DNA of 64,000 nt from Sphingomonas sp. (GCA_965249015.1 CBDFLB010000002.1:45802-109801); one strand, 5' to 3'. Counted from the stretch's first letter, positions 47,211 through 53,238 are shown. The notes: generated by a model not told the origin, from the letters alone. Made by a program: numbers and translations.

Positions 47211-48413
47211 TCAGTTCAGTGACGTTTCCGTGACAGCGGCAACCGGCGCAGTGGGGAAGATCGCCGCTGCAGTCGTACCGACACCGATCTTGCTGGTGAT
47301 TTCAAGCCGTCCACGGTGACGTTCGACGATATGCTTGACGATCGCAAGGCCAAGGCCGGTTCCGCCGACCGTGCGGCTTCGCCCGGCATCAACGCGGTAG
47401 AAACGCTCTGTCAGCCGCGGAAGATGTTCCGAGGCGATGCCTTCACCCTGGTCGGTCACCGTCAGACGCACCCAGGTGCCGTCGGCTCTTACGCTGATCC
47501 TGACCGGCGACCCTGCGCGCCCGTACTTGATCGCGTTGCCGAGCAGGTTGTGCGTGAGCTGCGACAGTTGCGCGCGATCGCCGACGACATCGCCGCTGTG
47601 CACGTCGAGTTCGATCCGCGACGCGGCGTTCCCCAACTCGTCGGCGACTTCACTGACAAGCGCCGGCAGCGAAATGATCTCGTCGGGCAAAAGATGCTTT
47701 TCGGCTTCGATACGGCTAAGCGAGATAAGGTCGTCGATCAGGCGCTGCATCCGCTGCGCTTCCTTCAGCATGATGCCGAGAAAGCGCGTGCGCACCTCGC
47801 GGTCGTCGCCGGTTTTTTCGTCGGCAAGCGTTTCGACGAAGCCCAGGATCGCCGATAGAGGCGTGCGAAGCTCGTGACTTGCATTCGCCACGAAGTCAGT
47901 ACGCGCCTGATCGACGGCGTGGCGTTCGGCGCGATCGACGAGGTGGACGATCCGTTTGCCCGGCGCGATCGTGGTCACGTACATCTCGACGCGCTGGTCG
48001 GCGGTCCCGATCCCGGCAAGTTCGACGCTCCCGTCGGGCGCGCCAGGTGCAAAGCGTGCGGACGACGCCGGGTGACGGATCGCCAGCCTGATGTCTTCGC
48101 CGATAATATGTTCGCCAAGCAGCGCGGTCGCAGACGGATTTGCGGCGCGAACGCGGTTGTCGAGAAGCATCAGCACCGGCTCGGCGATCGCCTTGATCAC
48201 TCCGAGGTCCATGTCATCCCCCGCGCCGGTTTGCGTCGTGGTGCGAACCGATTCGCGCTCGGTGAACAGCAAGAACACAGCAACCGTCAGCAGGCCGCAC
48301 GCGGCGACGATGACGGCACCATAGCCATAGGAATCGCGCTGCAGCGCGACGAGGACCAGCGCCGCCGTAAAAAGCAGGGCAACGGCGATACGCAGGGCAC
48401 TCGGTCGAGTCAC
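47211..48413 (-). CDS. phoR: Phosphate regulon sensor histidine kinase PhoR
   Basis: Two N-terminal TM helices, H-box FVANASHELRTPLSAILGF, and N/G boxes (LLGNAIKY, GTGLGLAIVKHIV). Confidence 0.88.
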   Translation of the reverse strand: MTRPSALRIAVALLFTAALVLVALQRDSYGYGAVIVAACGLLTVAVFLLFTERESVRTTTQTGAGDDMDLGVIKAIAEPVLMLLDNRVRAANPSATALLGEHIIGEDIRLAIRHPASSARFAPGAPDGSVELAGIGTADQRVEMYVTTIAPGKRIVHLVDRAERHAVDQARTDFVANASHELRTPLSAILGFVETLADEKTGDDREVRTRFLGIMLKEAQRMQRLIDDLISLSRIEAEKHLLPDEIISLPALVSEVADELGNAASRIELDVHSGDVVGDRAQLSQLTHNLLGNAIKYGRAGSPVRISVRADGTWVRLTVTDQGEGIASEHLPRLTERFYRVDAGRSRTVGGTGLGLAIVKHIVERHRGRLEITSKIGVGTTAAAIFPTAPVAAVTETSLN

Positions 48414-48503: not shown

Positions 48504-48908
48504 ATGCGTAGAGGGGCCAAGCCGATGACTGAGACGACCGGGGGGAACAACCGACGGCGGGTTTTGCAGCTGGGAACAATGGGCGCTTCGGCGATCCTGA
48601 CGGTCCGGCCTGCGCTTGCGTCGACGATGGCGTCGGTCATCAATTGCCAGATTCCGGTTCCCGACCCTGCGCGCGCCGGCAATCATATCGCCGCCGACGG
48701 GTCTTTGGTTGCGCCCGATACCGCGGGATCGTTCCCGGGGCCGGTTTCGCCGCTGAAAGGTCAGGACGTGAAGACCGCACTCGCCGGCGGTTCGCTGCCC
48801 GGACAGGACCCCGCCGCGAGCCAAGCCTACATGAACTACGTCCGTCGCCTGCAATATGGCCAGAGCGGTTTCACATGCTACGCCTCGCTCCAGGTTCCCG
48901 GCCGCTGA
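48504..48908 (+). CDS. Small exported protein with a twin-arginine (Tat) signal; function unknown
   Basis: NNRRRVLQLGTMGASAILTVRPALA|S is an RR motif, then a hydrophobic stretch, then an AxA cleavage site. The mature part is about 95 aa and Pro/Gly/Ala-rich with two Cys. Good GC3. It leads the PqqD/kinase/NTase cassette and diverges from phoR. Confidence 0.6.
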   Translation: MRRGAKPMTETTGGNNRRRVLQLGTMGASAILTVRPALASTMASVINCQIPVPDPARAGNHIAADGSLVAPDTAGSFPGPVSPLKGQDVKTALAGGSLPGQDPAASQAYMNYVRRLQYGQSGFTCYASLQVPGR

Positions 48909-49177
48909 GCAATGCGCCGAGGTTCCGCTGTGCCCCATCGGGCACGCTGCGTATCGTCCCGCTCGACGACCTGACCGCGATCTATCATCGCGCGAGTGGG
49001 CAAACGCATGTTGTGGCCGAACCGGTTCCGCAAATTCTGGACGCGTTGGGAGACGAAGCACGGACATTCGACGATTTGATCGGGCGGCTGCGCCTGCCGG
49101 ACGACAACGCAAGCCGCGAACTTCTGAGCGAACGGCTTGGCGAGCTGTGCCTCTCGGGGCTCGTCGAGCACGCATGA
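48875..49177 (+). CDS. PqqD-family (RiPP recognition element-like) protein
   Basis: About 100 aa. LRIVPLDDLTAIYHRASGQTHVVAEPVPQILDALGDEARTFDDLIGRL...LSERLGELCLSGLVEH follows the PqqD pattern (beta strands, then tH.l, then helices). ATG 48875 overlaps the upstream ORF by 34 nt, so the start is uncertain. Confidence 0.65.
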   Translation: MLRLAPGSRPLSNAPRFRCAPSGTLRIVPLDDLTAIYHRASGQTHVVAEPVPQILDALGDEARTFDDLIGRLRLPDDNASRELLSERLGELCLSGLVEHA

Positions 49178-50019
49178 GATATCGTTTCGACGTCCGCGTG
49201 GGCCCGATATCGTTTCGGGTCGGCTCCGCCTGGCGCGGGCCGGTCGTCGCGCTTCGAGAGCTCTACCGTGACTATCCGCGCGCGCCGCTGGTTCCGGACT
49301 ATACCGTGCGGCTCGAACCGGGGAGCTCATTCCGACGGCTGATCCGTCCGTCGGTCGCGATCCGCGGCGACCATATGCTGCCCGACGCCTTGCCGCTGCC
49401 GCTGGCTCAGGGGCTGCTCGCTGCTGAAATGGGCATGAACCTTCAGGTCGCGCTCGGCGAGCGAAGATTTCTCCTTCTTCATGCCGCAAGTGTCGAGAAG
49501 GGGGGGAAAGCGTTGATCCTGACCGGCGAATCGGGGTCGGGAAAGTCGACGCTGGCGGCGCTCCTGGGCGCAAAAGGCTGGCGGTTCATGAGCGACGAAT
49601 TCGTCCTGATCGATCCCGAAACGCATCTGATGCGACCATTCCCGCGACCGACAAGCCTGAAGAACGAAGCGATCGCGGCAATGGAAGCAGTCATCGCTGC
49701 CGATCGCTTCGGGCCGCGATTGGTCGGCACGCCGAAGGGAACTATCCGCCATCTCATCCCCGCCGAAAACGCGCTTGCGATGATGGACACTCCCGCCGAG
49801 CCGGCGGCTATCCTTTTCCCGCGCTTCGGCTTTGATAGCGCCGTGCGCGAGATTCCGCCGGCCGAATGTTTCGTGCGGCTCACGCAGGCGTCGACCAATT
49901 ATACGACGCTTGCGGAGCGTGGTTTCGACGCGCTGACACAGCTCGTCCAACGCGTACCGGCGATCGCGATCGACTATCCCGATGCCGACACTGCGCTGCG
50001 CTTGGTCGCGTCGCTTTGA
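49174..50019 (+). CDS. HprK-related P-loop kinase (HprK C-terminal-domain-like)
   Basis: ATG 49174 overlaps the PqqD-like stop (ATGA). 281 aa. LLHAASVEKGGKALILTGESGSGKSTLAALL is the HPr kinase-type P-loop context. The listed ORF from 48856 is an extension. Confidence 0.7.
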   Translation: MRYRFDVRVGPISFRVGSAWRGPVVALRELYRDYPRAPLVPDYTVRLEPGSSFRRLIRPSVAIRGDHMLPDALPLPLAQGLLAAEMGMNLQVALGERRFLLLHAASVEKGGKALILTGESGSGKSTLAALLGAKGWRFMSDEFVLIDPETHLMRPFPRPTSLKNEAIAAMEAVIAADRFGPRLVGTPKGTIRHLIPAENALAMMDTPAEPAAILFPRFGFDSAVREIPPAECFVRLTQASTNYTTLAERGFDALTQLVQRVPAIAIDYPDADTALRLVASL

Positions 50020-50984
50020 TCCTGGCGCGTGCGCTCGCAGAGCCGGAGACGGTGCTCGCGCTCGACGGCGACGGTTGGACAGGGCTGCTGTGTGCAGCGC
50101 ACGCCGAACGGCTGACGGCGACACTGGCACACCGCGTCGACGGGCTCCCGATCCCGCATGACGTCGCGTCGGTTTTCCGCAACGCGCAGCAGAATGCCGA
50201 GGCCGGCCGCACGCGCGCGCTATGGGAGGTCGAAATGGCGCGCCGTGCGCTTTCTTCGCTTGGCATATCGGTGTTGCTTCTGAAGGGGAGTGCTTTCGTC
50301 GCGGCAGGCCTCGAGGCTGGGCAGGGGCGCCTGATCGGCGATCTCGACATTCTCGTGCCGCGTGATGCGCTCGGCCGGGTCGAGCAAGCGTTGCTCGACG
50401 CGGACTGGGAATGGCTCAAAACCGACGCCTATGACGATCATTACTACCGGACATGGATGCACGAGCTTCCCCCCATGATCCACCGCGAGCGTGATTCGAT
50501 GATCGACGTTCACCACACGATCCTGCCGCTGACCGCGAGGCCGAAGCCCGACGCCGCAGCGTTGATCGCGCAGAGTGTGGAGGTTGCAAGCGGGCTTCGC
50601 ATGCTTTGTGCCGAAGACATGATCGTGCACGCCGCCGCACACTTGCTTGCCGACGGTGACTTGAGCGGCGGGTTGCGCAACTTGTGGGACATCCGCTGCC
50701 TGCTCGACGGTGTCGACCTTCACCGGCTGCGCGCCCACGCCGATCGCCACGGACTGGGTCGCGAAGTCGATCGTGCACTGCGATTGTCCGATGCCTTGTT
50801 CGGATCGCGAGGTGCTTCGGGCATCGTCGACCGGCTCTTCATCGCCCGGCTGACCGCGCGCGACGGCTGGGGCCGCGAGACACGGAAGATTTTGCGGCTC
50901 GCGTTCTACGTCCGCTCGCACTTTATCCGCATGCCGTTTCACTTGCTGGTCCGACATCTGTGGACCAAATGGCGGCGGCGCTAG
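50016..50984 (+). CDS. Nucleotidyltransferase family protein (NTP_transf_5 / PF14907-like)
   Basis: TTG 50016 overlaps the kinase TGA (TTGA). LILARALAEPETVLALDGDGWTGLL..., then VLLLKGSAF...GDLDILVPRD...IDVHHTI is the pattern of this uncharacterised NTase family. Confidence 0.65.
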   Translation: MILARALAEPETVLALDGDGWTGLLCAAHAERLTATLAHRVDGLPIPHDVASVFRNAQQNAEAGRTRALWEVEMARRALSSLGISVLLLKGSAFVAAGLEAGQGRLIGDLDILVPRDALGRVEQALLDADWEWLKTDAYDDHYYRTWMHELPPMIHRERDSMIDVHHTILPLTARPKPDAAALIAQSVEVASGLRMLCAEDMIVHAAAHLLADGDLSGGLRNLWDIRCLLDGVDLHRLRAHADRHGLGREVDRALRLSDALFGSRGASGIVDRLFIARLTARDGWGRETRKILRLAFYVRSHFIRMPFHLLVRHLWTKWRRR

Positions 50985-52596: not shown

Positions 52597-52620
52597 CCTC
52601 GAGCGGCGCGAAGGTTGCGA

Positions 52621-52866
52621 ATGAGAATCCTAACCGAAATACCCGACGACGACGTTAAGGAACTGGACGCTTTGGCGAACAGGAAAAAGAGTTCACGCGC
52701 TGCGGCGATCCGCGATGCGGTGAAACTCTATCTGGTTCACAATGCTGACAATAATGACTGGATTCAGCGCGGGCGCGGTTTCTGGAAAGACCGCACTGAT
52801 ATCGGCAACGGACTGGAATATCAGTTAGCAATCCGTGAGGATCGCACACCCTACGACGAACTGTGA
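52621..52866 (+). CDS. vapB: Ribbon-helix-helix (CopG/VapB-type) antitoxin
   Basis: MRILTEIPDDDVKELDALANRKKSSRAAAIRDAVKLYL is a typical RHH fold signature. AAGG lies 6 nt upstream of ATG 52621. Low G+C: 30/60 for 52621-52680. Confidence 0.75.
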   Translation: MRILTEIPDDDVKELDALANRKKSSRAAAIRDAVKLYLVHNADNNDWIQRGRGFWKDRTDIGNGLEYQLAIREDRTPYDEL

Positions 52867-52869
52867 TCC

Positions 52870-53238
52870 GTGTCGGACCCATTTTTTGATTCCAACATTG
52901 TTATCGACTGGCTGAAGGGCTCTCAGGCAGCGACGAACGAACTCGCGCGTTATCCTCGTCACCGGATCAGCCGGATTGTCTGGACCGAAGTTTTAGCCGG
53001 AGAGCCGCTAGAACGACGCGATCAAATTCAGCAGATTATCGCACCTTTCGAAATAGTCGAACTCGATACCCGCATTGCATTGGCTGCGGCAGACATTCGC
53101 TACCGAATGCGCATAAAGCTGCTTGATGCCTATATCTTTGCGACAGCACAGGTAAACGGCTCAATTCTCGTAACAAGAAATACCAGAGATTTTCCAGCCC
53201 AGATGCCGGGTATCCGGGTCCCTTATACCACTCCTTAG
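52870..53238 (+). CDS. vapC: PIN-domain toxin (VapC family ribonuclease)
   Basis: GTG 52870 lies 3 nt after the antitoxin stop. It has an FFDSNIVIDWL N-terminal acidic residue, then further conserved D/E (WTEVLAG, LDAYIFATA, TRNTRDF) in PIN-like spacing. Confidence 0.75.
   Translation: MSDPFFDSNIVIDWLKGSQAATNELARYPRHRISRIVWTEVLAGEPLERRDQIQQIIAPFEIVELDTRIALAAADIRYRMRIKLLDAYIFATAQVNGSILVTRNTRDFPAQMPGIRVPYTTP

Follow-up and report, generated by a model that had tools for sequence, protein, structure and literature searches.

Positions 48,504 to 50,984 of a 64,000-nucleotide stretch of Sphingomonas sp. DNA (GCA_965249015.1 CBDFLB010000002.1:45802-109801; the whole stretch is referred to as the window) carry four overlapping genes, which encode a small protein with a twin-arginine translocation (Tat) signal, a PqqD-like protein, an HprK-related kinase, and a nucleotidyltransferase. 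We suggest that these genes form an operon in which the PqqD-like protein, the kinase, and the nucleotidyltransferase modify the Tat-signal protein before its export through the Tat pathway, a reading to which we give about an even chance of being right. The original prediction had proposed a stand-alone system in which a peptide or protein is recruited by the PqqD-like subunit and modified. This proposal is consistent with all the evidence discussed here, and its putative substrate can be narrowed to the Tat-signal protein encoded immediately upstream.

Layout of the cassette

The features that are referred to below are the following (coordinates counted from the first letter of the window).

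48504-48908, + strand: small Tat-signal protein, open reading frame (ORF) of 134 aa; putative substrate or precursor, and the fourth member that is conserved in the cassette
48552-48620, + strand: twin-arginine signal region, with RRR at aa 17-19, the h-region LGTMGASAILTV, and then RPALA; the A-x-A motif ends at aa 39
48858-48899, + strand: C-terminal tail GQSGFTC(Y/F)ASLQ(V/M)P, aa 119-132, near-invariant; candidate modification or recognition segment holding S121, T124, and S128
48875-49177, + strand: PqqD-like protein, putatively of the peptide-recognition type, 100 aa; TIGR04353
49174-50019, + strand: HprK-related kinase A, 281 aa; TIGR04352
50016-50984, + strand: PF14907 (NTP_transf_5) nucleotidyltransferase, 322 aa
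49174-49177, + strand: ATGA, in which the start of the kinase gene overlaps the stop of the PqqD-like gene
50016-50019, + strand: TTGA, in which the start of the nucleotidyltransferase gene overlaps the stop of the kinase gene

All four ORFs are present on the same strand and in the same direction between phoR and glmU, as had been described, and the two four-nucleotide overlaps are found in the window sequence. In addition, the start of the PqqD-like gene (ATG at 48875) overlaps the Tat-protein ORF by 34 nt, because this codon is the sole in-frame ATG, GTG, or TTG start ahead of the conserved region. Among the orthologous loci, the nucleotidyltransferase matches likewise start at, or a few bases from, the kinase stop.

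The conserved unit has four genes

The comparison covers 81 Sphingomonadales loci, 80 from a genome scan and one from Sphingomonas sp. SUN039. The kinase and nucleotidyltransferase genes are present in all 81, the PqqD-like gene in 80, and a homologue of the Tat-signal gene in 79; both loci where the latter is missing are cut by a contig end. The PqqD-like gene is immediately preceded by the Tat-signal gene, and the gene order within the cassette is constant. The flanks vary, with phoR adjacent in 53 loci and glmU in 62. The conserved unit is a set of four genes, the Tat-signal protein included. The conservation anticipated for the trio of PqqD-like protein, kinase, and nucleotidyltransferase was thus recovered, but the unit does not end at three genes.

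The assignment of the first ORF as a Tat-signal protein is upheld at the level of motifs. Typical of Tat substrates are an S/T-R-R-x-F-L-K-like motif, an h-region that is mildly hydrophobic, a c-region with basic residues, and an A-x-A site. Inspection by eye and with a regular expression found these features in the window protein (N-R-R-R-V-L-Q-L-G...TVRPALA), with NRRRVLQLG as the twin-arginine motif, a stretch of weak hydrophobicity, and a cleavage motif in which ...TVRPALA is followed by S. The start of the gene is ambiguous: ATG at 48504 gives 134 aa and ATG at 48525 (Met8) gives 127 aa, as in the public record P0121. Both candidate starts lie 5′ of the RRR motif, each with a G-rich stretch ahead.

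The Tat-signal protein is 61% identical to the product of the same-position gene in Sphingomonas sp. SUN039. It belongs to a family of 1,201 clusters in which all source names seen, including those in RefSeq, are "hypothetical", and no Pfam or NCBIfam model matches the family. Conservation is highest in the signal region RRR.L.LGA.GASAVVTIRPALAQ, the segment SV.NCQIPVPDP, and the tail GQSGFTC(Y/F)ASLQMP. Mean column identity over 89 orthologues is 0.76 in the signal region, 0.66 in the central mature part, and 0.84 in the C-terminal tail, which is the highest block; invariant in the tail are G119, G122, F123, T124, C125, A127, S128, L129, Q130, and P132. In the orthologues inspected, the ...LQ(V/M)P sequence is followed by GR, R, RP, RG, RH, RA, or GRS at the C-terminus. 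The AlphaFold2 model of the protein is weak (pLDDT 56.8), with a moderately confident core at aa 60-120 and a tail below 50, and the conserved tail is therefore predicted to lie outside any confident fold. A Foldseek search with this model returned nothing at E <= 0.001.

The same arrangement in distant lineages

The genes had been expected to co-occur beyond a single genome, and they do so in Sphingomonadales, in beta- and gammaproteobacteria, and in the form of gene fusions (see below). Eight betaproteobacterial cassettes were compared, three of them from Noviherbaspirillum, Gallionella, and a member of the Methylophilaceae and the other five from further genomic or metagenomic contigs. In all eight the order is Tat-signal protein (181-284 aa), PqqD-like protein, kinase, and PF14907 enzyme. 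The upstream proteins in this set share SRR.FAK.GL..SGVLLTL.S followed by C.SPSGFLSGNAS.HG....C.G.SPGYW and a conserved C-terminal domain, and they have no Pfam match. A plasmid of Vibrio alfacsensis carries an upstream protein of this same family in an identical gene order, and the Tat-type motifs of the beta- and gammaproteobacterial proteins read S-R-R-x-F-A-K or S-R-R-R-F-I-R.

In both the sphingomonad and the betaproteobacterial upstream families, few parts are as conserved as the signal region. When the two families were compared with hhalign, the signal regions alone aligned (probability 3.7%), and the exported parts are therefore not detectably related. Profile searches of the PDB with both families gave nothing meaningful. 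Homology between the two families was considered and rejected, with nothing aligning past the signal region, and an "SGF" motif seemingly common to the upstream families was set aside since the most distant members mostly do not have it.

More distant kinases (25-30% identity), among the matches listed, also adjoin a Tat-like ORF, upstream of the kinase in L104, L105, L106, and L107 and downstream in L120 and L122. The mature regions of these Tat-like proteins are Ser/Thr/Pro-rich or Cys-rich. Those of L120 (2594-3181) and L122 (523-1059), placed 3′ of the kinase, are of a third kind, with the signal (S/T)RREL(I/V)(G/S)ALARW(S/T)VPTV and a Cys-rich mature start, ASCPPC..K...(G/K)(Q/K)C(K/R)AC.VSQMLNC.CEPCLGPPYC. 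Some of the proteins are barely more than a signal and Ser/Thr/Pro-rich, mucin-like repeats (L107 3754-4176, L105 5030-5593, and L084 8899-9663): the L107 protein carries TPT/STS repeats and the Gallionella protein (L084) a long Ser-rich insert.

Seven of the eight betaproteobacterial cassettes lie within PEP-CTERM/exosortase exopolysaccharide loci (L082, L084, and L131-L135; about 10 kb around the kinase). Their neighbours include Exosortase_EpsH/EpsI, Poly_export, GNVR, AAA_31, Bac_transf, PEP-CTERM proteins, and FeeM, together with PrsK/PrsR-like regulators and a PrsT-like TPR protein. Given this setting, the product of the cassette probably has its role in the envelope or in the extracellular matrix.

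The PqqD-like protein, the kinase, and the nucleotidyltransferase

The three enzymes were named in the original prediction as the catalogued "HPr-rel-A system", and profile searches agree with this identification for all three. The kinase scores 228.9 bits against TIGR04352 (cut-off 200; E = 6.1e-68, aa 7-281), the PqqD-like protein 41.3 bits against TIGR04353 (cut-off 35; E = 2.2e-10, profile positions 1-74 of 74), and the nucleotidyltransferase 161.5 bits against PF14907 (cut-off 31.2; E = 3.6e-47). The fourth model that had been named, PF05402 for PqqD, gave a different outcome: the window protein falls below the threshold of E <= 0.01, and four of 18 orthologues match, with a best E of 1.3e-15. 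A profile of the 18 orthologues searched against the PDB has as its best match the RiPP recognition element (RRE, where RiPP denotes a peptide that is made by the ribosome and modified post-translationally) of a lasso-peptide system, TfuB1 (6jx3_B), at a weak E of 0.029 over 74 columns; other PqqD chaperones were matched too. No signal peptide was seen in the PqqD-like protein, the kinase, or the nucleotidyltransferase.

The HPr-kinase-style P-loop that had been noticed in the kinase is GESGSGKST, at aa 118-126 (nt 49525-49551). The residues that stay invariant across alignments of 30 and 40 diverse homologues are H103, G121, G123, K124, S125, T126, D141, E142, R158, K163, and N242. Judged from these motifs, the layout of a His, a P-loop Lys, and an acidic pair is that of HprK/P and of the lasso kinases. 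The correspondence between the lasso motif His-Lys-Asp-Asp and H103/K124/D141/E142, in which the fourth residue is Glu, is one of motif layout and not of alignment.

The AlphaFold2 model of the kinase is of high confidence (pLDDT 93.5, pTM 0.90). Foldseek places ATP-dependent phosphoenolpyruvate (PEP) carboxykinases first (E = 2e-7, TMq 0.55-0.61), followed by the HprK/P chains 1kkl, 1ko7, and 3tqf (E = 5e-5 to 1e-3), and on this model the kinase is predicted to have the PEP carboxykinase/HprK fold. The similarity to PEP carboxykinase reflects a shared fold already known for the HprK/P catalytic domain. Against the HprK/P models themselves the kinase reaches 22.2 bits for TIGR00679 (cut-off 240) and 21 bits for PF07475 (cut-off 33.3). 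The kinase family is large, with 4,937 matches at E <= 1e-5 in 90% clusters; at the level of 50% clusters there are 12,100 at E <= 1e-3 and 212 at E <= 1e-30.

The GDLDILV sequence reported for the nucleotidyltransferase, a G-x-D-x-D metal-binding motif, is located at aa 108-114 (nt 50337-50357). A search of the PDB sequences with this protein found no relative. The kinase is fused to a PF14907 domain in five of the best 150 kinase-family representatives, and PqqD-kinase fusions are found in other lineages (P0290, P0336, and P0393). A further PqqD-kinase fusion, annotated as "PqqD family peptide modification chaperone", is encoded on the 47-kb plasmid pMt-1 of Methylobacterium tardum (L137 4553-7576), divergent from a nucleotidyltransferase-family gene; an adjoining gene encodes a hypothetical protein of 183 aa that looks membrane-like and has no twin-arginine motif.

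A proposed model for the modification of the Tat-signal protein

In the proposed mechanism, the Tat-signal protein (48504-48908) would be the substrate. The PqqD-like protein would bind it in the cytoplasm, probably at the conserved signal region or at the invariant C-terminal tail, and hand it to the HprK-like kinase for ATP-dependent phosphorylation of a Ser or Thr hydroxyl. Candidate phosphosites are S121, T124, and S128 in the GQSGFTCYASLQ tail. The PF14907 enzyme would then cap the phosphate by forming a phosphodiester with a hexose or a nucleotide, comparable to PsmK and PsmN acting on pseudomycoidin. The finished protein would leave by the Tat pathway, which takes cargo completed in the cytoplasm, and its signal would be cut after ALA. 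A Tat-protein substrate is proposed because the Tat-signal neighbour recurs with unrelated mature domains across lineages. The enzymes are taken to act together because kinase-PF14907 and PqqD-kinase fusions exist, and the kinase is considered likely to be competent because H103, K124, D141, and E142 are invariant and the model has the PEP carboxykinase/HprK fold.

Published data on related enzymes provide precedents. The lasso kinases need their His-Lys-Asp-Asp motif and phosphorylate the linear precursor (PMC9266682). PsmK phosphorylates Ser, and PsmN, an "uncharacterised nucleotidyltransferase", is required for the addition of hexose on phospho-Ser (PMC6993621). Among RiPPs, the bufferins offer a case in which the precursor is a small protein that carries a signal peptide and has an RRE-like partner (PMC11626156).

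Several points weigh against this mechanism. The second catalytic Asp is replaced by Glu in the window kinase family, and the window Tat protein ends in PGR, whereas the known lasso kinases act on a C-terminal Ser. The exact chemistry of PsmN was left undecided in the work on pseudomycoidin (PMC6993621). The Tat signals were called by motif and by a simple regular expression, to which 83 of 2442 raw ORFs also conform. The genome scan yielded only Sphingomonadales loci, and the sample of the broader family is small and non-systematic; the distant kinase loci come from a metagenome scan on a generic P-loop pattern and were taken from the matches listed. In addition, Tat adjacency is not universal, because it is absent in L093/L097, L100, and L102. 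In the first two, which represent one alphaproteobacterial clade (L093 5200-5989 and L097 5272-5992), the trio adjoins glmU and has no upstream Tat gene, while L100 and L102 have no Tat protein and are flanked by glycosyltransferases. In place of the Tat gene, this clade has genes for a TonB-dependent receptor and a MarR-family regulator upstream of the trio, and it may have lost the substrate gene or may carry it at another site in the genome.

We also raise, tentatively and as a possibility that we would not call probable, a more general reading. The cassette would represent a widespread and so far unrecognised class of small Tat-exported proteins whose mature parts are unrelated between lineages and often rich in Ser/Thr, and which are O-phosphorylated and then phosphodiester-capped (by phosphoglycosylation or nucleotidylation) in the cytoplasm by an RRE-guided HprK-like kinase and a PF14907 enzyme. 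The PqqD-like protein would serve as a Tat-signal proofreading chaperone, and in betaproteobacteria the system would be integral to PEP-CTERM/exosortase matrix production.

Alternative explanations

The closest structures to the kinase model are small-molecule kinases, i.e., the ATP-dependent PEP carboxykinases (E = 2e-7). This feature raises an alternative in which the cassette is a sugar or small-molecule activation module for the envelope or exopolysaccharide: the kinase would act on a sugar or lipid-linked intermediate, the nucleotidyltransferase would make a nucleoside-diphosphate-linked donor, and the Tat protein would be an unrelated or downstream neighbour. The likeness to PEP carboxykinase, however, is accounted for by the fold that HprK/P is generally known to share. 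The genomic setting is favourable to such a module, given the PEP-CTERM/exosortase polysaccharide loci around seven of the eight betaproteobacterial cassettes, the glycosyltransferases that flank L100, and the usual position next to glmU in Sphingomonadales (62/81). Yet a putative peptide-binding protein of the PqqD/RRE type is an obligate partner of the kinase and is even fused to it, and the characterised relatives, HprK/P and the lasso kinases, act on proteins or peptides (PMC9266682). A small-molecule module would also leave the recurrent Tat-signal neighbour with its unrelated mature domains unexplained, and we regard it as unlikely.

Another possibility is that the trio tailors, as an orphan module, a ribosomal peptide whose gene lies elsewhere in the genome, e.g., a Ser-ending lasso peptide, and that the Tat protein is not the substrate. 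The only characterised relatives are lasso-associated kinases and nucleotidyltransferases (PMC8498205, PMC6993621), Sphingobium has the lasso kinase SyanK (PMC9266682), and the L093/L097 clade retains the trio without an adjacent Tat gene. The distribution of cyclase genes bears on this alternative in two ways. Asn-synthase-type cyclase genes do adjoin kinases of the family, but only the most distant ones (L116, L119, L124, and L129), and these lasso-linked kinases form the most remote branch (E = 1e-7 to 1e-10 relative to the window kinase) and have no adjacent Tat ORF. Closer to the window kinase, no ORF for an Asn-synthase-type lasso cyclase was found in the window (as had been claimed), within 10 kb in the 81 Sphingomonadales loci, or in the first five betaproteobacterial loci. 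Around all eight betaproteobacterial cassettes, the genes with Pfam annotation include no lasso protease, radical-SAM enzyme, or Asn-synthase-type cyclase, and none of the latter is among the listed neighbours on the Vibrio plasmid. Moreover, the tight linkage of the four genes and their overlapping reading frames point to a local substrate. An orphan module of this kind is, in our judgement, quite improbable.

Finally, it is very unlikely that the cassette is a regulatory or export quality-control device without permanent decoration, in which the PqqD-like protein is a Tat-signal chaperone only and the kinase and nucleotidyltransferase form a reversible switch (comparable to HprK/P or the GlnE/GlnD type) controlling export or activity: HprK/P is indeed a regulatory kinase/phosphorylase whose fold and P-loop the window family shares, the signal regions are unusually conserved, and phosphate or phosphonate genes lie nearby in three lineages, but a Pho box does not score above shuffled background, phoR adjacency is missing in 28 of the 81 loci, the nearest functional precedent for enzymes of the PF14907 type leads to a hexose modification that is stable (PMC6993621), and Ser/Thr-rich, mucin-like substrates such as that of L107 resemble decoration targets more than switches.

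Relationship to known systems

The window trio passes both equivalog models of the HPr-rel-A system in NCBIfam/TIGRFAM as well as PF14907, and nothing in the trio differs from that entry; an orthologous RefSeq Sphingomonas locus carries exactly these names, with gene order and overlaps in agreement. The system had been described as catalogued but without a known function, and this description still holds: the literature searches gave no substrate, product, or publication describing a function. Searches on the function of the trio, including HPr kinase with PEP-CTERM and PqqD with exosortase or twin-arginine, found nothing relevant, and a single paper that cites PF14907 gave no useful information. 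The upstream Tat protein has no family model. Hence, the trio is already known to databases; its link to a Tat-signal substrate and its embedding in PEP-CTERM loci are not described, as far as checked.

The nearest functional parallel is the tailoring pair of lasso-peptide systems (the kinases PadeK, ThcoK, SyanK, and PsmK, and the nucleotidyltransferase PsmN), likened here through published descriptions. Like the window cassette with its putative RRE, these systems combine an HprK-like P-loop kinase, a nucleotidyltransferase partner, and a PqqD-type RRE from the same cluster; in them, the substrate is modified as a linear precursor ahead of further processing (PMC9266682, PMC6993621). Unlike the lasso systems, the window cassette has no cyclase, B2 protease, or ABC exporter. 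Its candidate substrate has about 95 mature residues and a Tat signal and does not end in Ser, and the catalytic pair of its kinase is Asp-Glu rather than Asp-Asp. With HprK/P (TIGR00679, PF07475), the window kinase has in common the P-loop, the fold of the catalytic core, and the His...GxSGxGKS...acidic-pair layout. In contrast to HprK/P, its N-terminal domain is different, it scores far under the cut-offs, and its context shows no link to HPr or to carbon-catabolite control.

Bufferins (MNIO/DUF2063) also involve a small protein with an export signal, cytoplasmic modification with an RRE-like partner, export by a general pathway, and a periplasmic role (PMC11626156). They differ in their modification (thiooxazoles instead of phosphorylation), in their signal (Sec instead of Tat), and in belonging to unrelated families. 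A parallel of another kind concerns the proposed role of the PqqD-like protein. The Tat proofreading chaperones TorD, DmsD, and NapD are small cytoplasmic proteins encoded beside their Tat substrate, and may hold the signal peptide until maturation is complete. They have other folds and belong to other families than the PqqD-like protein, for which signal binding is suggested by conservation only.

The kinase family is large and the cassette occurs in alpha-, beta-, and gammaproteobacteria, yet no substrate, product, or phenotype is known. A co-encoded candidate substrate makes the function of the system testable. If the proposed modification of the Tat-signal protein is correct, protein phospho-capping would join the known modifications of the bacterial envelope, and RiPP recognition logic would be used on Tat-exported proteins. 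PF14907 enzymes would gain a defined acceptor, and a missing function would be supplied for PEP-CTERM/exosortase biofilm and floc loci.

Genomic context

In the window, pstSCA-phoR lie upstream of the cassette on the - strand, and glmU, a VapBC-like pair, and glmS lie downstream. The view that the cassette has the G+C of the host core and is not a recent import agrees with the G+C content at third codon positions, 0.70-0.78 for the cassette compared with 0.75-0.80 for phoR, pstS, glmU, and glmS; with values this close to those of neighbouring core genes, a recent import is not indicated. Searches around the cassette for promoters, terminators, and RNA families gave nothing of note. A look-up of the window kinase found no exact-sequence record, and identity as a defence system was discarded after PADLOC gave weak P-loop noise only.

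The suggested connection to phoR and phosphate holds in so far as phoR is adjacent here, but it amounts to local synteny (53/81). In 12 loci, the matches to a Pho box of the E. coli type that lie upstream of the cassette scored no better than those in shuffled sequences. Phosphate regulation was accordingly dropped as evidence and the synteny kept as a lead. Phosphate-starvation-type or phosphonate genes occur near the cassette in three separate lineages. Besides phoR-pstSCA, which the cassette adjoins in the window (47211-48413) and in other Sphingomonadales, these are phoB/phoR/pstS-like genes 7 kb from the cassette in the Methylophilaceae genome (L083 17089-20265), and phnR with a 2-aminoethylphosphonate transporter adjoining the cassette on the Vibrio alfacsensis plasmids (L136 11941-16990).

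The VapBC-like antitoxin/PIN-toxin pair between glmU and glmS (52615-53238) consists of overlapping genes for 83 and 122 aa. Sphingomonas sp. SUN039 has a pair with RHH_1 and PIN Pfam matches in the corresponding position (L001 13969-14600), and a similar-looking pair is located downstream of glmU in L097 (12026-12765).

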